A stretch of DNA of 32,000 nucleotides from Coprobacillaceae bacterium. Its GTDB lineage: Bacteria > Bacillota_I > Bacilli_A > Erysipelotrichales > Coprobacillaceae. The translations under genes were made by a program, and so were the position numbers. Numbering within the stretch: position 1 is the first letter of the stretch; the number at the start of each line of letters is the position of its first letter. The stretch covers positions 1,530,001 to 1,562,000 of the forward strand of contig OY776328.1 in NCBI GenBank assembly GCA_963675515.1, given 5' to 3'. The notes under the pieces are model-generated. The model was not told where the DNA came from and made no database searches. It saw nothing but the letters and a program-made list of their open reading frames with translations. Shown here piece after piece: positions 5,479 to 27,558 of the stretch.

Positions 5479-8109
5479 CTAGGCGATCAGTCTGCTGTCA
5501 TGACAAATGAAATAGATGATCTGGTATTTTTCACTTATCTTATTGATCAGTTCTTTGGCGCTGTCTATTCGCTCGTTGTCAAGATTGATAAATGGGTCGT
5601 CGAGTATCAATAAAGGTGCATCAACGTTCTTATACACGGCATCCACCAGGGAAAGTCGCATACACAGCTGGATCAGGTCCTGCATACCGGTGCTAAGCTC
5701 AGCGCTATCATGCAATTCACCATTCTCTTCCAGTTTTACCTTTAAATCAATATCGACCTGATAAGCGTCAGGCTTGTTGGCACTTAAGGCGGCAAGATAA
5801 GTCTTTAATGATTCATTCATCTCGCCCATATACTTGGATGCCAGGCTTTCCTTGGCATCGTTCATACAACTCATTGCCAGCGACAACAATTCATATTGCT
5901 TTTCAAGTTCCGCCTTTTCTTCAACGTTTTGAGCTATCTGGGATTCGATATCTTCAATCTTATCGGCATTGATACTTAACTCATTAATTTGGCTGTTGAA
6001 TTTGGCGATATTTTCAATGATTTCAGATCGTTTTGAACTTAGTTCTCTTTGCCGTTGAGACAAGCTGTCTTTCAATGACATATCATCCTGTTCTGGCAAT
6101 TCAAGTGAATCTAATTGGGTAATGTCATGGTTTTGAGAGAAGTTGTCGACTCGTCTTTTAATATCATTGAAACTCAATATAGCGGCTTTGTAATCCTGGA
6201 ATCTGTTGTTGAGATCTTCAACGGCATCTTTGATTGATTCAGGCAACCCGCCAAAGTACTTGATCATCATACTATCCAAATATGATTGGGTGCTTTCCAA
6301 TTTTTTTGTTGCGCCCGCCAAGGATTCATTTTTTTCAAATAGCTTATGGAAATGATCGATATCACTTCTTAATGCCCGCAGCGAAGCCTGATAATCATCT
6401 AAAGGATTTTGCATATCGTATTTCGACAGAAATTCATCAACTGCTTTCTTCACTGCAACGATATCTTTTTCCAACTGCACCAGAGCAGCTGATTTTGTCT
6501 CGATTTCTTTTTTCAAGCGATTGTAATCGGACAGCTCGGTCAGGATGTTTGCCAAGGCTGCCGTGATGTTGTTATCGCCTTCACCCAGCTGTGCCAAAAA
6601 CGCTTTGGTGTTGTTTTCGATAGTTGTCTTGTTTTGTAGATCTTTATCCAGCTGTTTGATCAAATCATCTCGTTCACTATCGTTTTGATTGACTTTTGTG
6701 TTTTTATGATTGCTTGGCGAATTTTTCAATGAGTAAACAATCAGCCCTATGCCTGCCACCACCAAAACCCCTGTTATTGCTATGGAAACCAGAACTGCAA
6801 CTATACCTAATAGTGCAATAACGATTCCTGCAATCAGTAAAGGGCTTATTTTGCTTTTTTCAGTTTTTTGTTGCTGGGAATCGATTTCCCTGATTTTGTC
6901 TTTGGCTGTGGAAATTCGCTCATTAAGGTCATTGACTTGTTGGTAGCTGTTGAGACAATTTTTCACGTTATCGACAGATACCTGCTTGTCTTTAAACTTG
7001 CTATCCAGATAATCATATCTATTTGATGTTTCTTCACCGATAACATATTTGCTTTTGTCCGTATTGAGATTTGAAAGCTTGGAAATGTTGTTGTTGCAAA
7101 CCTCCAGTTGATCTGATCTAGGGACACCGCTCTCGAATTTCTTAGCGAGATTGTCAAGTGTGTCTCTTTCTTCAGGCGACATATCAAATTGGCCTTTGAT
7201 TTCAATCTGGGATTTCAATTCTGAAAGCTTGTCGTTAATTTCTTTGATTTCCAGCTGAAGATCATTCAACTCAACGTTATCACCATCAAAGAATCTGTGG
7301 AGCTCTGCAAACTCTTTTTCCTTCTGGTCGAATTCCTTCTTCAGCTCGATGTACTGTCTTTTTTGTTGATAGAGGAGCAGCTTGTCTTGTTGGGCAACAA
7401 TGGCATCCATTTCTTTATCGACTGCATTCTTATCAGCTTTCTCATTATCGATCCATCCTGAAATTGTATCAATGCTTTCAGCGTCGGCGATGCATTTGTC
7501 CAATTGTTGTTTCAGTTTGCCAATTTGGTTGTCTTTATCATTAAGCAGCCCTTTTTTTCCTCTTTTGGCTTTGAACTCGGTTGCCTTTGATTCAAGGAGG
7601 TTTACAACCTCTTGAGAGCGGTCCATGTCGGCTTCTTTGTCGTCTAATCCACCAAGCTTTTGAGAGATGATTGAGTTAAGCAAATCGTTGCCCTTTAATG
7701 TGATGAAAGCAGTGTTTTCATAAGATTCACGATCAACTCCCCAAATTTCATTTCCTATGTCTTCAGTGAAATCAGTGGTGACAAGGTTGGTTGCCAGATT
7801 GATAATCTCAAAAGTGTCAGTTTTAGCAGTCTTGCCAAAGAATCTGGTCATCTTGTATTTCTTGTTATTGTGCTCGAATACGATATTTCCACCTAATTTC
7901 CCGCCATTCCATGGATAATAGGATTTTCTTTCATTGCCTTTCTTTTTTGTACTATAGTCAAGTCCATAGAACATCGCTTTTAAGAAGGCTGCCAGTGTAG
8001 TCTTGCCCCAGCCGTTATCCTGGTAGATCACGTTTAATCCTTCTTCAAAAACATGATTGTATTTTGATAACCTGCCGAAATTTTCGATGTGGCAACTGAT
8101 CAGTTTCAT
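5479..8109 (-). CDS. yhaN: YhaN/SbcC-like AAA ATPase with long coiled-coil regions and a central hydrophobic (transmembrane) segment
   Basis: The N-terminus MKLISCHIENFGRLS...NGWGKTTLAAFLKAMFYG carries a Walker A. The C-terminus has LSTGMQDLIQLCMRLSL (signature-like) and LLILDDPFINLD (Walker B). There are extensive heptad-like K/E/Q/L-rich stretches. The hydrophobic block ISPLLIAGIVIALLGIVAVLVSIAITGVLVVAGIGLIVY sits mid-protein. The ATG overlaps the upstream gene stop (ATGA coupling). Confidence 0.8.
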   Translation of the reverse strand: MKLISCHIENFGRLSKYNHVFEEGLNVIYQDNGWGKTTLAAFLKAMFYGLDYSTKKKGNERKSYYPWNGGKLGGNIVFEHNNKKYKMTRFFGKTAKTDTFEIINLATNLVTTDFTEDIGNEIWGVDRESYENTAFITLKGNDLLNSIISQKLGGLDDKEADMDRSQEVVNLLESKATEFKAKRGKKGLLNDKDNQIGKLKQQLDKCIADAESIDTISGWIDNEKADKNAVDKEMDAIVAQQDKLLLYQQKRQYIELKKEFDQKEKEFAELHRFFDGDNVELNDLQLEIKEINDKLSELKSQIEIKGQFDMSPEERDTLDNLAKKFESGVPRSDQLEVCNNNISKLSNLNTDKSKYVIGEETSNRYDYLDSKFKDKQVSVDNVKNCLNSYQQVNDLNERISTAKDKIREIDSQQQKTEKSKISPLLIAGIVIALLGIVAVLVSIAITGVLVVAGIGLIVYSLKNSPSNHKNTKVNQNDSERDDLIKQLDKDLQNKTTIENNTKAFLAQLGEGDNNITAALANILTELSDYNRLKKEIETKSAALVQLEKDIVAVKKAVDEFLSKYDMQNPLDDYQASLRALRSDIDHFHKLFEKNESLAGATKKLESTQSYLDSMMIKYFGGLPESIKDAVEDLNNRFQDYKAAILSFNDIKRRVDNFSQNHDITQLDSLELPEQDDMSLKDSLSQRQRELSSKRSEIIENIAKFNSQINELSINADKIEDIESQIAQNVEEKAELEKQYELLSLAMSCMNDAKESLASKYMGEMNESLKTYLAALSANKPDAYQVDIDLKVKLEENGELHDSAELSTGMQDLIQLCMRLSLVDAVYKNVDAPLLILDDPFINLDNERIDSAKELINKISEKYQIIYFICHDSRLIA

Positions 8110-9194
8110 TGGATTACCTCTTTTCCCAGGATTGCATTGATACCCATGACAATGATTTTGCTCTTTTCTTCCGGATCAATGTTTAGGTCATTTACTTTTC
8201 GGATAAATTCACCCTTCAATGAAATGTCATTTTCATATTTAAGGTAATCTATTTTGATTTCGGTTTTGTCAACTACCCGGGTGAAATAAAACTGGCTCTT
8301 GAATTTTTGCTGCAAGTAACTGATATCAACCTCGGTTTCTTCAGAAATATCACCCTGAACGATGATTTTGACGATATCTGATTTAGGAATGTCTTTTACT
8401 ATATTCTCTATTGTTTGACCAAGCTGAGTCATATTAACATCATCGCTCATATCGACAAATACTTCGTGAAATTTTCGTCTGGCAAACTCGCTATGGAAAG
8501 TTTTAGTGATTTTGTTTCCCGAAATATCTAACAGGACAAATCCCTTTGTACCGCATTCATCAAATCCGCGACCTTCAAGACATCCGGAATAGCAGTATTC
8601 TCCCCGATAGTCCAACTTTTCACATTTGTATTCATGAATATGACCAAGCGCGAGATAGTCGACGAACTTGTTTTTAAGAACCTCGATATTTATGTTCTCC
8701 GATTTGTTGTCACTTTGATAATTGCTCGTTTGTCCGTGAAGTACAACGATATTGACATCTTTTTCATTCAACAGAAGTTTTGAGTGAAAGTCAGTTGTAT
8801 TGTTCCCTTTAAATTCATAACCGGTGATGACAACATTGTCGTATCTGTAGCTTTTCCAAGAATCTGTGAATAGTTTCAGATTAGATGGAAGTGTGTCCAG
8901 ATTTTTGAAGAAATCATCGCTGTCATGATTTCCTTGCAGATAAAGAAAATCAATGGAGCTGTAAGTTTCGATCAGTTCCAGCACCCGGTCCTTGATTCTT
9001 TTCTGTCTGGTTTGTGGCGTATCGAACATGTCACCGGCAATGATGATGGCTCTTACATCGTTTGAAGAAGCGAACTTCACCATATCTCCAAATGTTTCGA
9101 GAATTTCCAGTCGCCTTTCCTTGGCTTGTTGTGTTGTCAGATGCGTCTCCATCTTTGAATCCAGATGGAGATCGGCACAATGAATAATCTTCAT
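8106..9194 (-). CDS. yhaO: YhaO/SbcD/Mre11-like metallophosphoesterase (DNA repair exonuclease family)
   Basis: Calcineurin-like phosphoesterase motifs are present: MKIIHCADLHLDS, IIAGDMFD, LQGNHD, VLHG, LGHIH. SD GAGGGAG lies upstream of ATG 9194, and the gene is translationally coupled to the ATPase gene. Confidence 0.85.
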   Translation of the reverse strand: MKIIHCADLHLDSKMETHLTTQQAKERRLEILETFGDMVKFASSNDVRAIIIAGDMFDTPQTRQKRIKDRVLELIETYSSIDFLYLQGNHDSDDFFKNLDTLPSNLKLFTDSWKSYRYDNVVITGYEFKGNNTTDFHSKLLLNEKDVNIVVLHGQTSNYQSDNKSENINIEVLKNKFVDYLALGHIHEYKCEKLDYRGEYCYSGCLEGRGFDECGTKGFVLLDISGNKITKTFHSEFARRKFHEVFVDMSDDVNMTQLGQTIENIVKDIPKSDIVKIIVQGDISEETEVDISYLQQKFKSQFYFTRVVDKTEIKIDYLKYENDISLKGEFIRKVNDLNIDPEEKSKIIVMGINAILGKEVIQ

Positions 9195-11906: not shown

Positions 11907-13559
11907 TTAGCGGGTTCTTTGCTTATGAACAAATGCCAAGGACAGACTTGCTCCGGCAATAAGAATAAGGTATTTGGAATATGAAGCGGCGTCCCCGGTG
12001 GCGATGACTTCATCAGCTGCTGTTTCGTCGGCCAATTCGGGTGGTGTTACCTCTTTGTTTACATTGATTATCGGAGGAACAACTATCTCCTCTTGTTTCT
12101 CGCTGAAGTAATTGTTGAATGTGATGACATCAACCGGTTCATCAAATCTGAAGTATTCAAGGATAACGCTCAGGATTCCTTTATTGTCGGTCACTGCTGC
12201 AACTATTCGATATTCGCTCTTATCGTAGATGTAGTCGGGATCATTTCCCTCCAGTTCGCTAAGTGTGAAATAATAGATGCCTGGCTGGGTGAATTCCAGA
12301 AAAAAACTGTTGGTGTGGATTGAATCATCAAGGATGGTTATGGTTGGTGTTTCGTTTTTTATATTTGCATATTCGTAATCTTCTTCAGGGACAAGCAGGA
12401 AATCGAAGCTTGGATTGCTGTCATCCTGGTAGTTTAGCACCTGTTTTTCAAATGGCAATGAAATGCCAGTAGGAATTGGCTGGTATACATTGGTGAAGAT
12501 GATGGCATCCTGGACGCCGTTATTATCTATTATGGTCCTGGTTACCAGGCCATATTGATCTGCTTCGAGTGTCACCGTAAATGTGTTGTCATCGTAAAGA
12601 TAGTAGGGACTGTCATTGGCAATCTGTTTTATCTTGGCCTGATAATCCGTATTGGGGAACATGTAGAAGGAAAATGAGTTTCCCTGTTCAGTTGGATAGT
12701 CGATGGCTTTGGTTGAATTCAGGAATTCACCGAAGGGCAGGATATCATACATTCCCACCTGGAACACCTCGTTCCAGCCGGTAACCGGCGTAGTTGCCAT
12801 GCTTACTGGCAGTGTGACTTCGACCGGCAGTGAGACATATGTGTTTTGGAAGATGACCTGGGGCGCGATGACATCATCCTTGTAGATGGTCGTTGAAGCA
12901 AGGTTCAGGTTGAATCCATTTGCTGTAACTACATAATCGACCCGGAACAGCGAATCATCGAAGGTGAAGTTCTGGTAGCCCAGATTCACCTGGGAGATAG
13001 TAAGTGAATAAAGACCAGGTTTGCTTATCGGGTAATCAAGATTGCCGTAAATATCAATCGTTCCATCATCCCACATCATATTTACCAGGTCGACCTGGCT
13101 TCCATCAGGCAGGGTAAGGGTTGTTACAAATTCGAAGTTGGGGTAATCATTAAAGACATCATGGCCGTTGGCCTGGAATTCAACCGTTCCTGTCGGAAAG
13201 GACAAGGTGCCCTGATAAACCTTGTCCAGGACTACTGTGATCACGTTACCTACCTGATTGTAGGAAATGGTGTAATTGGCCACCGGATCCACCACAACAT
13301 CGTAATCCAAAGAAGTATTTAAGCCACTGAATAGATGGCTGTTTTGGCTGGTGGTAATGGTATCCACGACCAGATAACCATCCTGGTCAGGCAACTTCTG
13401 GCGCAAATGGACGGTCAGGTCGCTGGCCGGTGGACCTTCCCAGCTGAAGTTAACCTGGAGTGTCGACGAACCAGTGGCACTTACATGCAGGATATTCAAT
13501 CCCAATACAAATAGAAGACTCAACAAGATGGTAATCAACTTAAATTTGCTTTGTAACAA
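11907..13559 (-). CDS. Secreted cell-surface protein with repeated pilin/adhesin-type (Spy0128-like isopeptide-domain-like) modules and a C-terminal membrane anchor
   Basis: Signal peptide MLQSKFKLITILLSLLFVLGLNILHVSA. There are at least three modules of the type PG(L/I)Y..T(I/L)S(Q/E)... each ending in F.N.Y (FQNTYVS, FTNVYQP, FNNYFSE). The C-terminus is VIATGDAASYSKYLILIAGASLSLAFVHKQRTR: a sorting-signal-like motif, a hydrophobic helix and a basic tail. The start is TTG with GAGAGGG upstream. Confidence 0.8.
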   Translation of the reverse strand: MLQSKFKLITILLSLLFVLGLNILHVSATGSSTLQVNFSWEGPPASDLTVHLRQKLPDQDGYLVVDTITTSQNSHLFSGLNTSLDYDVVVDPVANYTISYNQVGNVITVVLDKVYQGTLSFPTGTVEFQANGHDVFNDYPNFEFVTTLTLPDGSQVDLVNMMWDDGTIDIYGNLDYPISKPGLYSLTISQVNLGYQNFTFDDSLFRVDYVVTANGFNLNLASTTIYKDDVIAPQVIFQNTYVSLPVEVTLPVSMATTPVTGWNEVFQVGMYDILPFGEFLNSTKAIDYPTEQGNSFSFYMFPNTDYQAKIKQIANDSPYYLYDDNTFTVTLEADQYGLVTRTIIDNNGVQDAIIFTNVYQPIPTGISLPFEKQVLNYQDDSNPSFDFLLVPEEDYEYANIKNETPTITILDDSIHTNSFFLEFTQPGIYYFTLSELEGNDPDYIYDKSEYRIVAAVTDNKGILSVILEYFRFDEPVDVITFNNYFSEKQEEIVVPPIINVNKEVTPPELADETAADEVIATGDAASYSKYLILIAGASLSLAFVHKQRTR

Positions 13560-17100: not shown

Positions 17101-18474
17101 GGCCTTTCGCTGTTTACTATGGGTAAGCAGGAGTATAGCCCCTTGTGCTTCTAGTTAAAATGACCTAAAATTGTATCCATAAACTACTAACGATAACGAG
17201 GTAATGATTATGGATACTTTGGACTTATTTACAAAAGCTCTTAACTTAGGTGAACCTTGGACTGTTTCTGATGTCAATTTTCTGGATACCGACAAAGGCA
17301 TGGAATTGCATATAAATATCAGTTTCACCAAAGGCGGTAAATTCCCTTGTCCGGTTGATGGTTGTAAAGAAATTGGAACTGCATACGATACAACCAAAAG
17401 GACCTGGAGACATCTTAATTTCTTCCAGTACAAGACATTCATCCATGCTGATTTGCCACGGGTAAATTGCAATGATCACGGGCCTCAAACTGTTCAAGTG
17501 CCATGGGCAAGACCGGGATCAGGTTTTACCCTGCTTTTTGAAGGTTGGGTAGTAGAGTTGGCTAAGCATCTTCCGGTTTCTCGCATTGCTCAAATGATCG
17601 ACGAACATGATACGCGGCTGTGGCGCTTCATCAAGCATTACGTCAATGAAGCCCGTAAACTCGAAGATTATTCAGATGTTACAGCCATCGGTATCGACGA
17701 AACAAGCAAGAGAGGCCATAATTACATCACTGTTGCCGTTGATCTCGCCAAACGCAAGGTAATCAACGTTACCCCGGGAAAAGACTCTAAAACAGTTGAT
17801 AATTTCGTCGTGGACTTCAAGGAACACGGTGGTGATCCAGAGCTTATCAATATCATTACTTGCGACATGTCGTTAGGCTTCAAAAAAGGTATCAAAGAAA
17901 ATTTCAAAAACAGCAATACTGTTATCGATAAATTTCATGTAGTAAAACACGCCAACGAGGCAGTAGACAAAGTCCGTAAAGATGAAGTGCGCACCAATTT
18001 CTTATTAAAGAAAACCAAGTACATCTGGTTAAAGAATGAGAGTAACTTGACCGAGAATCAAAAGCAGAAGAAATTTGATTTAGCCAAGTTAAACCTTAAG
18101 ACAGCCCGAGCATACAATATGCGACTCGCACTACAAGATGTTTATGAATCCAGCGACACCGTTGAAGAGGCAACCAGAGGACTCAAAAAACTGTGCTCAT
18201 GGATGATGCATTCCAGACTCGAACCAATGAAGAAATTCGCGAAGTTAATCCGTAATCACTGGGAGGAGATTCTCAACTATTTCAGGTTCAGGTACACCAA
18301 TGCAATTCTAGAAGGAATGAATAGTATTATCCAAAACATCAAGACCAGGGCAAGAGGATTTCGGAATGACGAATACTTCAAAACACTGATATATTTGGTG
18401 TGTGGAAAGCTCAATCTTGAAGCGGTTGTCGCAAAGGGTTAATGGTAGCTACCCACACCAAACAGCGAAGAGCC
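17101..18474 (+). mobile_element. Intact ISL3-family insertion sequence (about 1.37 kb) with imperfect terminal inverted repeats and an 8-bp target-site duplication
   Basis: IRL is GGCCTTTCGCTGTTTACTATGGGTAAGC. The reverse complement of the right end is GGCTCTTCGCTGTTTGGTGTGGGTAGCT, matching about 20 of 25 positions and carrying the GGCTCTTCG-type terminus typical of ISL3. Identical direct repeats CTTTTTTG lie at 17093-17100 and 18475-18482. There is a single transposase ORF. Confidence 0.85.
17210..18442 (+). CDS. ISL3-family transposase
   Basis: The N-terminal zinc-finger region contains FPCPVDGC...WRHLNFFQY. The DDE region contains IGIDETS, ITCDMS and VIDKFHVVKH. ATG 17210 has better SD spacing (GAGG at 17198-17201) than ATG 17204. 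Confidence 0.9.
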   Translation: MDTLDLFTKALNLGEPWTVSDVNFLDTDKGMELHINISFTKGGKFPCPVDGCKEIGTAYDTTKRTWRHLNFFQYKTFIHADLPRVNCNDHGPQTVQVPWARPGSGFTLLFEGWVVELAKHLPVSRIAQMIDEHDTRLWRFIKHYVNEARKLEDYSDVTAIGIDETSKRGHNYITVAVDLAKRKVINVTPGKDSKTVDNFVVDFKEHGGDPELINIITCDMSLGFKKGIKENFKNSNTVIDKFHVVKHANEAVDKVRKDEVRTNFLLKKTKYIWLKNESNLTENQKQKKFDLAKLNLKTARAYNMRLALQDVYESSDTVEEATRGLKKLCSWMMHSRLEPMKKFAKLIRNHWEEILNYFRFRYTNAILEGMNSIIQNIKTRARGFRNDEYFKTLIYLVCGKLNLEAVVAKG

Positions 18475-22447: not shown

Positions 22448-25223
<2,776 letters not shown>

Positions 25224-25354
25224 ACAATATCTAACAGAACAAGAATGACTATGATATGTCTATATAATCTATGTAAACACATATGGCGTGTTTAGCAACA
25301 TTTACCATTCTGTTATGCAATATTAGAGTCCCCATCCTGGATTATTGAAATTAT

Positions 25355-25383
25355 TTGATTTCGATATTTCAACGTGGTATATT
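25355..25383 (+). promoter_or_regulatory. Near-consensus sigma-A promoter driving the repeat-containing RNA
   Basis: TTGATT (25355-25360), exactly 17 nt, then TATATT (25378-25383) preceded by TGg (extended -10). Confidence 0.55.
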
Positions 25384-25416
25384 GTTGTTGTAAGAGAAAT
25401 CCTCTTAGAAACAAAC

Positions 25417-25484
25417 CGGAGAACCATAGCCTGAGTTGGAACTACTAAATCGGAGAACCATAGCCTTAGTTGGGAATTTAAAAG
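25417..25484 (+). repeat. Two head-to-tail 34-nt repeat units
   Basis: Unit 1 is CGGAGAACCATAGCCTGAGTTGGAACTACTAAAT and unit 2 is CGGAGAACCATAGCCTTAGTTGGGAATTTAAAAG. The first 23 nt are identical except for 1 position; the tails are A/T-rich and divergent. Confidence 0.85.
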
Positions 25485-25486
25485 AA

Positions 25487-25525
25487 CAAAAACAGAGACG
25501 CAACTAATGTTGTATCTCTGTTTTT
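25487..25525 (+). terminator. Rho-independent terminator (hairpin with a 2x2 internal loop) followed by T5
   Basis: CAGAGA-cg-CAAC-taat-GTTG-ta-TCTCTG, then TTTTT. An A5 run upstream means it could also act on the minus strand. Confidence 0.6.
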
Positions 25526-25649
25526 GCAATATGTAGAAATGTGAAAATGTAGCCAATGGTTTTAAATAGAATCATAGGCAGGTAGTAGATTCATGGTGGT
25601 GATGATCAAATTCATTCACATACGTTTGTCAAAAAAAATCTGAAAAAAC

Positions 25650-25688
25650 TTGACACTCCTAACCTTGAGACTTAAGCTAAGGTTGAGA
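25650..25688 (+). promoter_or_regulatory. Putative promoter of the AbiEi-like gene with overlapping 11-nt direct repeats (possible operator)
   Basis: TTGACA (25650-25655), 17 nt, then TAAGCT (25673-25678). The repeats TAACCTTGAGA (25660-25670) and TAAGGTTGAGA (25678-25688) flank and overlap the -10. Confidence 0.4.
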
Positions 25689-25704
25689 AGGTGGTGGGTT
25701 TATT

Positions 25705-26406
25705 ATGGGTTATTCAACCAAAATAGAAAGTGTTCTAAAGAAATATCCTGAACTCGACATTTTTGATGCCCAGTATCTATATAACAAGAAATTCAAGAAT
25801 ATATCGAAACAAGCATTTTACCAGACCCTTTCGCGACTTACAAAAAAAGGGATGATTAAGAGGATTACCAATGGCATTTACTGTATCCCAAAACAAGGCC
25901 AGTTCGGTCTGGTTGTGGCCCAGGAGAATAATATCATCAGTTATTATTTGGGAAAAGACAACAAAGAAGGCATTGTTGTCGGATATAGAATGTATAATCA
26001 ATATAAGCTCACAACCCAGGTATCCGAGAAAGTGGAACTGTATTCGAAAATTGCAACCACCACAATCAAGAATATCGACAATGTGAGTGTTACTAAAATA
26101 AATATCAAACTGGGTTCCAAAACCAAGAGCCTGATTGAGTTGCTTGAGGTATTGGAGAATGCCAAAAATATTGAAGAGTTGGATCGTGTTAATCTGAAAG
26201 CTTTTATTAGTAATCGGGTTGGAGCTTACGATCAAAAGCTGATGGAAATGATTATGAAGGATATCGGATATAAAAAAAGCACTTTGGCATCTTTGAAAAA
26301 GTGTTTGGATCATTATAAGATTGAAAACAACCTGCCCAACTATTTGAATGCAACTTCCAAATACGTAATGATTGAACTGGAGCTAAATGACGAATCTCAA
26401 CAATAA
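25705..26406 (+). CDS. AbiEi-like / DUF6088-type winged-helix protein (type IV TA antitoxin-like)
   Basis: The N-terminus ...ISKQAFYQTLSRLTKKGMIKRITNGIYCIPK, followed by ...YRMYNQYKLTTQVSEKVELYS, matches my memory of the AbiEi_4/DUF6088 pattern (wHTH, G.Y..PK, then N.LGLTTQVP). SD AAGGTGGTG upstream of the ATG. Confidence 0.65.
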   Translation: MGYSTKIESVLKKYPELDIFDAQYLYNKKFKNISKQAFYQTLSRLTKKGMIKRITNGIYCIPKQGQFGLVVAQENNIISYYLGKDNKEGIVVGYRMYNQYKLTTQVSEKVELYSKIATTTIKNIDNVSVTKINIKLGSKTKSLIELLEVLENAKNIEELDRVNLKAFISNRVGAYDQKLMEMIMKDIGYKKSTLASLKKCLDHYKIENNLPNYLNATSKYVMIELELNDESQQ

Positions 26407-26485
26407 CCAGGCACTTTTTGAAGAACTGATTGCCTTGACTAGAAATCAGGCTGTGCAAAAAACAAACGATGAAGGAACTTTTTGA
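26387..26485 (+). pseudogene. 32-codon ORF resembling the N-terminus of an AbiEii/AbiGii-type nucleotidyltransferase toxin (truncated remnant)
   Basis: ATG 26387 overlaps the 3' end of the AbiEi-like gene, the usual AbiEi/AbiEii geometry. The product MTNLNNNQALFEELIALTRNQAVQKTNDEGTF resembles the remembered N-terminal pattern (..N...LF.ELI..T...) of these toxins but stops after 32 aa. Confidence 0.3.
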
Positions 26486-26507
26486 TTCCGTTTAAAGATA
26501 AGGGCGG

Positions 26508-27260
26508 GTGATTGCTTTGGAAAATAACTTAGATATCTTGGACTGTCTAAAAACTTCTAAGAGTTATTTTGAGGACTTCGCTTCCAGGTTCACTTATCAT
26601 AGCAATGCGATAGAGGGAAGTACCTTGAGTTTCGCCGAAACGTATGCGTTACTGTTTGACAGTAAATACAGCAAGATAGAACAAGCGGATGTCAAGGAAA
26701 TATACGAGGCAATCAATCATAAGTATGCATTGAATATGGTAATTGAGCGGGTAGATGATAAAATATTGTCCATAGATGAGCAATTCCTTACCAAGATAAA
26801 TCAAACGATAAATCATAACATTATTTTCGTTGGAGGCTATCGGTTGGGACGAATCCGAATCCGAGGTTCGCAGAAGGAATTTCCTTTGCCAAGTGAGCTG
26901 GAAGCAGTGATGAATGAATATTATGATAAATATAATCGTTTGTTCCATTCAAGTTTCGATATGGAAGATATTGCGAGAATGCACTTGGATTATGAAAACA
27001 TCCATCCCTACCCTGATGGTAATGGCCGGACGGGGCGATTGATGATAAATTATATATTGCTAGCTGCCAATCAAATACCAATAGTAATACCTTTTGAAAA
27101 CAGAAAAACATATCTTTCTTTGATGGAAGATAATGATGTTGCCGGGCTTGCGGCAATGTTTAAACAGCTCCAGGAAAGTGAATACTCTCGGATTTGTGAT
27201 TTCCTGGATATGGATAGTGAACCAGCAAGACAGCTTATAAGAAAAGATGTCATGGAATAG
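26508..27260 (+). CDS. Fic/DOC-family protein, class II (N-terminal inhibitory helix motif present)
   Basis: The catalytic motif HPYPDGNGRTGR matches HxFx(D/E)GNGRxxR with Y in place of F. The inhibitory motif S-x-x-x-E-G is present in the N-terminal region as YHSNAIEGSTL. The start is GTG 26508 or, with better SD spacing (GGGTGAT at 26506-26512), TTG 26517. Confidence 0.85.
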   Translation: MIALENNLDILDCLKTSKSYFEDFASRFTYHSNAIEGSTLSFAETYALLFDSKYSKIEQADVKEIYEAINHKYALNMVIERVDDKILSIDEQFLTKINQTINHNIIFVGGYRLGRIRIRGSQKEFPLPSELEAVMNEYYDKYNRLFHSSFDMEDIARMHLDYENIHPYPDGNGRTGRLMINYILLAANQIPIVIPFENRKTYLSLMEDNDVAGLAAMFKQLQESEYSRICDFLDMDSEPARQLIRKDVME

Positions 27261-27429
27261 ACCGTGGACAGTTGATTTACAGCTGGCCCGGAGTAGTTAT
27301 GCTGGTTGAATCCCTGATATGGATAAAATATAACCTGTGGTTTGCTTGGATAGTCAATAAAATACCACTCGAATCTTAGAACTGATATAAGTTGACAGAT
27401 CCAAGCAACTGTCAACTTGATATAATGCG

Positions 27430-27462
27430 AAAACCCCGCTCACACATGTGATTGGGGCTTTT
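27430..27462. terminator. Bidirectional terminator between the Fic gene (+) and the RpiR gene (-)
   Basis: AAAA-CCCC-gc-TCAC-acat-GTGA-tt-GGGG-CTTTT. A/T runs on both sides, between convergent stops at 27260 and 27559. Confidence 0.6.
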
Positions 27463-27558
27463 AACTTTGACCGCGAGTCTTCAAAAAATCAATCTGAAAT
27501 GCTGCTTGTTGATATAGTAGGTCGCATTGAAATGAAGAATCACCGGTTGTATTGACCT

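Follow-up and report, generated by a model that had tools for sequence, protein, structure and literature searches.

The locus lies in a 32,000-nucleotide stretch of contig OY776328.1 from a Coprobacillaceae bacterium (hereafter the window) and occupies the interval between the stop codon of a gene for a GH1 6-phospho-beta-glucosidase and an AbiEi-like (DUF6088) gene, which is followed by a Fic gene. The features detected in this interval and its surroundings are listed in Table 1. Together, a sigma-70-type promoter, a 5' hairpin, two copies of a 27-nt element, an A-rich spacer and a strong terminator hairpin form a self-contained gene of about 137 nt with no coding potential.

Table 1. Coordinates of the RNA gene and of neighboring features within the window
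Feature	Position	Strand	Description
GH1 gene	23742-25223		6-phospho-beta-glucosidase
Low-GC islet	about 25.2-27.5 kb		34-40% GC, 2.3 kb, between sugar-utilization genes of about 50% GC
Overlapping ORF	25323-25556	-	77 aa
Promoter	25355-25383	+	-35 TTGATT (25355-25360), 17-nt spacer, extended -10 TGgTATATT (25375-25383); predicted transcription start near 25390
5' stem-loop	25391-25407	+	UAAGAG/CUCUUA, 6 bp, 5-nt loop; probably stabilizes the 5' end
Unit 1	25413-25446	+	Junction AAAC, 23-nt core CGGAGAACCAUAGCCUGAGUUGG (25417-25439), 7-nt linker AACUACU; 27-nt repeat at 25413-25439
Unit 2	25447-25473	+	Junction AAAU, core CGGAGAACCAUAGCCUUAGUUGG (25451-25473)
Terminator	25487-25526	+	AAAACAGAGAC-GCAAC-UAAU-GUUGU-A-UCUCUGUUUU plus U run; 18-nt arms at 25487-25504 and 25509-25526
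Spacer	25527-25704	+	Where the toxin gene begins in toxin-linked loci; no toxin gene or detectable remnant
AbiEi-like gene	25705-26406	+	DUF6088
Fic gene	26508-27260	+

Anatomy of the RNA gene

The elements described in the sequence-only reading, which reported a promoter, a leader with a small hairpin, two tandem 34-nt units and a terminator without a credible ORF, were all confirmed. The two 27-nt direct repeats are identical at 25 of 27 positions with a start-to-start spacing of 34 nt, and the 23-nt core occurs only at these two places in the window at up to three mismatches, where shuffled sequences gave an expectation of 0 matches. Tandem Repeats Finder did not report the array, even at a score of 30, because only 27 of the 34 nt repeat. 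The promoter match is not above chance on its own (4 sites found, 4.4 expected), and its support comes from its positional conservation in homologous loci. The terminator hairpin has an energy of -17.8 kcal/mol, although a simple terminator scan did not call it. A 141-nt stretch spanning the predicted RNA folded better than 199 of 200 shuffles (z = -3.5), and the repeats themselves remained largely single-stranded. The minus-strand ORF that overlaps the element cannot be a conserved gene, because homologous loci have one or two units at periods of 27, 34, 35, or 38 nt, which do not keep a reading frame.

Distribution of the RNA gene

The 23-nt core CGGAGAACCAnAGCCUnAGUUGG was found at 19 distinct places, the window and 18 further loci, and every named organism among them belongs to Erysipelotrichales. 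Recovered loci are numbered with the prefix L. An exact scan for GGAGAACCATAGCCTNAGTT in one genome per species (185,579 species) returned nine loci, all from Erysipelotrichales assemblies, and a scan of a metagenome collection returned seven more. Each of the nine assemblies held a single locus, so the element is not a dispersed repeat. Because an exact pattern was used, decayed solo copies would have been missed and core conservation among solo copies is partly ascertainment.

The loci share the same plan. A promoter-like TTGATT ... TGnTATAAT is followed in about half of the homologous loci by a hairpin of different sequence at the same position (GAAGA/UCUUC, GGAUA/UAUCC, GAAAUC/GAUUUC, CAGAUA/UAUCUG), then by one or two core units and a hairpin plus T run. 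The terminator stem (ACAGAGA...UCUCUGU; ACAGAGA...UCUCUGUUUU conserved in the alignment of homologous loci) is itself homologous to the terminators that separate the RNA from the toxin gene elsewhere and shows compensatory variants (ACAGGGA/UCCCUGU, ACAGAGG/CCUCUGU, and CAGAAGAC/GUCUUCUG). Homology with the window gene extends from promoter to terminator (74-83% identity over 117-189 nt), including toxin-linked loci L017 (74% over 189 nt) and L012 (83% over 117 nt). Apart from about 20 nt of weak similarity to L003, homology stops at the terminator.

Genes downstream of the RNA in other loci

In L003, L004, L005, L006 (= L016), L007, L011, and L012, a gene encoding a protein of about 580 aa starts 15-35 nt after the terminator. 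Residues 1-155 of the product match Pfam ToxN_toxin (PF13958, E = 6e-15 to 5e-21) and PADLOC AbiQ (E = 1e-23 and 4e-17 for the two proteins tested). Residues from about 330 to 500 match HipA_C at about the Pfam cut-off (23.8-30.7 bits against 30.5) and the PADLOC candidate PDC-M03A (E = 7e-23). Sequence comparison with solved structures related the N-terminal domain to Bacillus thuringiensis ToxN (4ATO, 6e-10), AbiQ (4GLK, 8e-10), and Escherichia coli ToxN (7D8O). The C-terminal domain aligned with the HipA-like kinase CtkA (3AKJ) across the NxDRHxGNxG catalytic loop and the APIxDxG motif.

The reverse comparison gave the same linkage. A search with the L003 protein found about 70 full-length clusters, and every cluster carrying an organism name is from Erysipelotrichales (Thomasclavelia, Coprobacillus, Beduini, Tannockella). 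These proteins are named "type III toxin-antitoxin system ToxN/AbiQ family toxin" by NCBI, and the toxin-linked loci are therefore already half-annotated. Four of them were examined, including the two most divergent at 39% identity, and in each case the same core was found upstream (L017, L018, L019, and L020-L025). In total, 11 distinct toxin-linked loci were seen (PF13958, E = 1e-15 to 5e-21), with two units plus a homologous terminator 15-35 nt upstream of the gene for the protein of about 580 aa. All have two units, one of which is degenerate in L018, with periods of 27 (L020), 34, 35, or 38 nt. A toxin gene preceded by a terminator that is in turn preceded by tandem repeats is the criterion used to define type III loci (PMC3401426).

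The predicted toxins depart from ToxN in their active site. Residues K33, T52, S53, and K55 of ToxN (PMC8860590) are not conserved: the segment with K33 is deleted in 62 of 62 fusions, T52 is kept in 3 of 62, S53 in 30 of 62, and K55 in 2 of 62. A profile-profile alignment at 99.6% probability showed the same. In contrast, the kinase motifs NxDRHxGNFG and APxxDSG were invariant in 30 fusions. At the sequence level, the cognate proteins thus do not keep the catalytic residues of ToxN, an endoribonuclease that processes its repeats at an A-rich site, although an AAAU-type junction precedes most units.

Conservation of the RNA core

Across 19 distinct unit sequences, 18 of the 23 core positions are invariant, whereas the toxins are only 39-58% identical to one another. 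Variation is concentrated at core positions 11 and 17 (columns 15 and 21 of the unit alignment) and in the 4-nt junction, which is usually AAAU; the junction before unit 1 in the window is AAAC. The identity of core position 11 follows the toxin clade, being U in the main clade, C in L018/L019, and G in L020. Junction variants are shared by both units of a locus (AAGA in L006, ACAU in L010, UGA in L019). Both patterns fit a cognate protein-RNA pair. The minimal period of 27 nt, corresponding to junction plus core, shows that the 7-nt linker of the window copy is dispensable.

A ToxI-like H-type pseudoknot can be drawn for the core (G2G3 with C14C15; C8C9A10 with U21G22G23) with both variable positions in loops. 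All five pairs are invariant apart from one C-to-U wobble change, so that no covariation supports any fold of the core, the layout had no advantage over shuffles, and the near-invariance of the core makes the comparison uninformative. The MFE fold leaves the units largely unpaired. No Rfam family matched at gathering thresholds over the window, and a permissive scan of 25300-25600 at E up to 10 gave only chance-level matches.

Solo copies of the RNA gene

The promoter, repeats and terminator of a type III antitoxin RNA are present in the window, but no ToxN/AbiQ, CptN or TenpN family toxin gene lies immediately downstream. A tblastn search with five toxins gave only chance hits at other coordinates of the window (best E = 0.37). 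Alignment by eye had suggested that the toxin 5' UTR and start codon survive at 25527-25600, but this was rejected because an nhmmer profile of 11 toxin 5' regions (5' UTR plus coding sequence) and the tblastn search found nothing there. Outside the window, the absence of a cognate toxin rests on an indirect argument: none of the 120 best toxin clusters has a longest contig as large as the 2,881,239-bp contig containing the window, suggesting that a fusion toxin on the same contig is unlikely, an inference that depends on gene calling and on the word filter of that search.

Seven other distinct loci are also solo, L002 and L010 with two units and L001, L008, L009, L013 (= L015), and L014 with one. 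Their neighbors are unrelated to one another and include glgB, parB, a DeoR regulator, an aconitase-like gene, an AraC regulator, and a RelQ-like gene. L008 and L014 share only the 149-nt RNA gene, at 88% identity, and their flanks do not align. Promoters and terminators were not part of the search pattern, yet every solo copy with upstream sequence to compare keeps a promoter-like site and all keep a terminator, which argues for retained expression.

Relationship to the AbiEi-like and Fic genes

The two genes downstream of the RNA in the window match PADLOC AbiEi (E = 9e-77) and PDC-S04 (Fic; E = 8e-47). Whether the repeat co-occurs with such genes or with ToxN-like genes had been proposed beforehand as a check, and the outcome favored the latter. 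A tblastn search with the AbiEi and Fic proteins of the window gave no hits in any of the other 18 distinct RNA loci, none of which has an AbiEi homologue of this subfamily or a Fic homologue nearby, and the one context examined for an AbiEi homologue (54% identity), recovered twice as L026 and L027, has no copy of the core. The AbiEi-like and Fic genes share the low-GC islet with the RNA but are an unrelated module and not part of the RNA system.

Interpretation of the window copy

The RNA gene in the window is best explained as a stand-alone member of a previously undescribed RNA family whose other members include the upstream repeat RNA of type III-like toxin-antitoxin loci in Erysipelotrichales. 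In those loci, a promoter drives one RNA with two copies of the almost invariant core, each preceded by an AAAU-type junction, and a terminator separates it from a gene for a predicted toxin with a ToxN/AbiQ-like N-terminal domain and a HipA/CtkA-like Ser/Thr kinase domain. The anatomy, the homology and the linkage to toxins elsewhere come directly from the sequence comparisons, whereas expression, RNA-protein binding, neutralization of the toxin and any role in this genome are inferred, and the term antitoxin is itself an inference from architecture. We consider this explanation probable overall. We are highly confident in the identity of the element and regard its expression as probable, but a selected function in this genome is only a tentative proposal.

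The sequence-only reading had inferred a type III antitoxin-like RNA from architecture alone and had listed an orphaned antitoxin among its options, and the comparative data support that option. Its alternatives, a repeat-RNA partner for a non-ToxN effector and an unrelated sRNA or protein-binding array, are not supported. Two details needed correction. The conserved unit is a 23-nt core plus an AAAU-type junction with a variable linker of 0-11 nt, and the cognate ToxN-like toxins are kinase fusions that lack the ToxN catalytic residues, so cleavage at ACUAAAU, which had been likened to the cleavage contexts of ToxN-type nucleases, is not assured.

The arrangement of the toxin-linked loci mirrors that of ToxIN, where a constitutive promoter makes abundant repeat RNA and a terminator lets only a fraction of transcripts reach the toxin gene (PMC3401426). 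By analogy, the terminator would set a high RNA-to-toxin ratio. We infer that the ToxN-like domain is mainly a sequence-specific RNA-binding module that recognizes the core, that the kinase is the toxic activity, and that bound RNA keeps the kinase inactive. The classical mechanism, in which ToxN cuts the repeats and stays bound to the product, may therefore not apply. In this view the RNA of the window, if expressed, can only act in trans, as a decoy or immunity RNA that would neutralize an incoming ToxN-like/kinase toxin (anti-addiction); otherwise it is a recent relic of a lost toxin cassette. A more far-reaching possibility, unlikely on present evidence, is that the family defines a new kind of toxin-antitoxin system in which a catalytically inactive ToxN-like domain serves only as a sequence-specific RNA sensor that holds the fused kinase in check while the core RNA is bound. 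The solo RNA genes of about 150 nt would then be selected, horizontally spread immunity genes that neutralize such kinase toxins in trans, which would make them an RNA anti-addiction module.

Among the other explanations, a neutral relic, left after loss or replacement of the toxin gene in a defense islet, is the most plausible, although we consider it unlikely. The toxin is absent, the RNA lies next to another defense-type module, unit 1 has an atypical junction, and in Tannockella kyphosi (L017) the complete RNA-toxin pair lies directly upstream of an AbiEi/AbiEii pair, so a similar island could have lost its toxin here. However, the promoter, both cores and the terminator are intact, no toxin remnant is detectable, and the retention of promoter-like sites and terminators by the other solo copies in unrelated contexts is unexpected for free decay. 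A role as partner RNA or operon leader of the AbiEi-like/Fic module is very unlikely. The RNA is adjacent, on the same strand and in the same islet, and terminator read-through could contribute to AbiEi/Fic transcription, but the co-occurrence data largely refute this reading, AbiEi-type proteins are themselves the antitoxin or regulator of their modules, and the RNA is, by its linkage, cognate to another toxin family.

A trans-acting base-pairing or housekeeping sRNA with one or two seed copies, which the toxin family merely uses or monitors, also is improbable. The extreme conservation of the core, its largely unstructured state in MFE folds and the solo single-unit genes in several genomes would be consistent with it, but there was no excess of complementary sites in the window (five 9-mers against 3.5 expected, and one 10-mer), no Rfam family matched, the core variant tracks the toxin clade, and the strict two-unit arrangement directly upstream of ToxN-family genes in every toxin locus examined is the hallmark of a cognate RNA. 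Direct repeats between a promoter and a terminator, with the terminator preceding the gene in toxin-linked loci, could indicate a DNA-level operator array, a cis-acting attenuator or a riboswitch. This is very unlikely because solo copies occur with the next gene on the opposite strand (L002, L008) or in unrelated contexts, the next gene in the window starts 180 nt beyond the terminator, the spacing between units varies from 27 to 38 nt, and the terminator stems show compensatory changes typical of an RNA element. Phage-borne ToxI mimics occur (phage PhiTE and ToxIN), but a prophage-carried pseudo-ToxI is the least likely reading here. Two patterns gave zero matches in 2.9 million viral contigs (IMG/VR), no match was found in the phage (INPHARED) or plasmid collections, and there are no phage genes around the element in the window. 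Full-length fusion toxins also were absent from these viral, phage and plasmid collections, where only the separate domains gave hits.

Comparison with described systems

The layout of a promoter, short tandem repeats, an intrinsic terminator and a PF13958-family gene is shared with the toxIN family, in which 1.9-5.6 copies of 31-62 nt are found (PMC3401426), compared to two copies at periods of 27-38 nt in the toxin-linked loci. The A-rich AAAU junction is comparable with the GAAAU cleavage context of ToxN (PMC8860590), and a conserved core of about 23-27 nt with variable flanks parallels the ToxI core pseudoknot with its single-stranded overhangs. The cognate proteins differ in their size of about 580 aa, compared to 70-288 aa for the toxIN family, in their kinase domain and in the loss of the ToxN catalytic residues; the core differs in being nearly invariant across toxins that are only 39% identical. 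Blower et al. (2012) list a toxIN locus in Coprobacillus sp. 29_1, but their toxIN toxins span only 70-288 aa (PMC3401426).

Described HipA-family kinases (HipBA, HipBST, YjjJ/HipH) are controlled by protein antitoxins (HipB, HipS) or by fused HTH, HipS, or HIRAN domains (PMC8262856). That survey of HipA-homologous kinases does not mention ToxN/AbiQ fusions or RNA control, and neither did any paper found describe an RNA-controlled, ToxN-domain-fused Hip-like kinase. Literature searches for the core sequence, ToxN-kinase fusions and orphan ToxI found nothing specific in the library searched, and the RNA, its invariance, the kinase fusion of its toxins and the solo copies are, as far as could be found, not described. 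Orphan antitoxins such as chromosomal ccd-like anti-addiction modules could neutralize a related incoming toxin. The anti-addiction orphans described are proteins and the solo ToxI-like repeats described are phage-borne, whereas the genes reported here are chromosomal RNA genes with their own promoter and terminator in at least eight distinct contexts.

Three features would extend the present picture: an uncatalogued RNA family with an almost invariant core across diverged toxins; cognate toxins that look like RNA-gated kinases rather than RNases, which, if so, would bring RNA antitoxins into the HipA persistence and defense kinase world; and the repeated occurrence of the RNA gene on its own in genomes that lack the toxin, which makes the idea of RNA-based immunity or anti-addiction directly testable. 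For annotation, the core gives a simple sequence signature for these loci and explains an otherwise puzzling sRNA-like gene next to an AbiEi/Fic module.

Genomic setting of the islet

A tRNA scan of the window found none, and no convincing flanking repeats of the low-GC islet were detected. A GH1 gene lies upstream of the RNA both in the window and in L020-L025, but the GH1 proteins are only about 38% identical and the downstream genes differ, so this shared synteny was judged to be coincidence. The islet was probably acquired horizontally. The best named homologue of the host SbcD is from Lachnotalea glycerini at only 62% identity. Taken alone, this suggests that the host may not be Erysipelotrichales, which would fit such acquisition, although one gene cannot settle it. 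In T. kyphosi, the RNA-toxin and AbiEi/AbiEii pairs lie beside an IS66 element and an SLFN-type ATPase, and a defense-island setting is thus common to both genomes.

Cognate toxins and sequence of the RNA core

The cognate toxins, represented by the genes at three toxin-linked loci (L003, L006, and L017) and by about 70 protein clusters (P0002-P0069), are fusions of about 580 amino acids that join a ToxN/AbiQ-like domain to a HipA/CtkA-like kinase domain. The canonical ToxN catalytic residues are not conserved in these proteins while the kinase catalytic motifs are invariant, suggesting an RNA-gated kinase toxin rather than an RNase. Positions of these genes and of the other features are compared in the table below.

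Part of the RNA core in both repeat units of the window (ACCA-UAGCCUNAGUUGG) resembles a tRNA 3' end followed by the common D-arm sequence UAGCUCAGUUGG. No tRNA model matched, and the resemblance may be coincidental, although it is of interest because HipA-type kinases target aminoacyl-tRNA synthetases.

Positions of the features in the window and at related loci
Sequence	Position	Feature
Window	5479-9194	SbcCD-like pair
Window	11907-13559	Protein with a streptococcal pilin isopeptide-linkage domain
Window	17204-18442	ISL3-family transposase
Window	25200-27500	Low-GC islet with the RNA gene, an AbiEi-like gene and a Fic gene
Window	25426-25440 (and unit 2)	Part of the core resembling a tRNA 3' end and D-arm sequence
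Window	25651	TTGACA
Window	25661-25690	Inverted repeat, AACCTT-N12-AAGGTT
L003	3407-5146	Cognate toxin gene
L006	5138-6868	Cognate toxin gene
L017 (Tannockella kyphosi CP088239, 137968-145707)	3001-4740	Cognate toxin gene
L008	4831-4978	Solo RNA copy
L014	28-175	Solo RNA copy
L020-L025	2890-2943	Two abutting units

Genomic context in the window

The RNA gene, the AbiEi-like gene and the Fic gene (PADLOC PDC-S04) are held in a low-GC islet (34-40% compared to about 50% in the flanking GH1, PTS and RpiR genes), which lies between the 3' ends of two convergent sugar-utilization genes. No flanking repeats were found around the islet. Inspection of the sequence showed an inverted repeat, centered on CTTAAG, just upstream of the start codon of the AbiEi-like gene and after a TTGACA, which may be an autoregulatory operator of the AbiEi-like protein. 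The window also contains an ISL3-family transposase, a protein with a streptococcal pilin isopeptide-linkage domain, and an SbcCD-like pair. The best named homolog of the SbcD protein, from Lachnotalea glycerini, is only 62% identical, so the host belongs to a poorly sampled lineage.

Toxin-linked and solo loci elsewhere

The T. kyphosi locus (L017) is a defense island that holds IS66 genes, the RNA-toxin pair, an AbiEi/AbiEii pair, and an SLFN/AlbA_2 ATPase gene. The solo copies L008 and L014 share only a 149-nt module. In both, CAAACTACT upstream of the -35 element is the inverted complement of AGTAGTTTG just after the unit, which may be a hint of a mobile mini-element or a recombination site. 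In the toxin-linked loci L020-L025, the two units abut with a period of only 27 nt and no linker. The upstream GH1 gene is broken into fragments in L023 and L024, while the RNA-toxin pair is intact.
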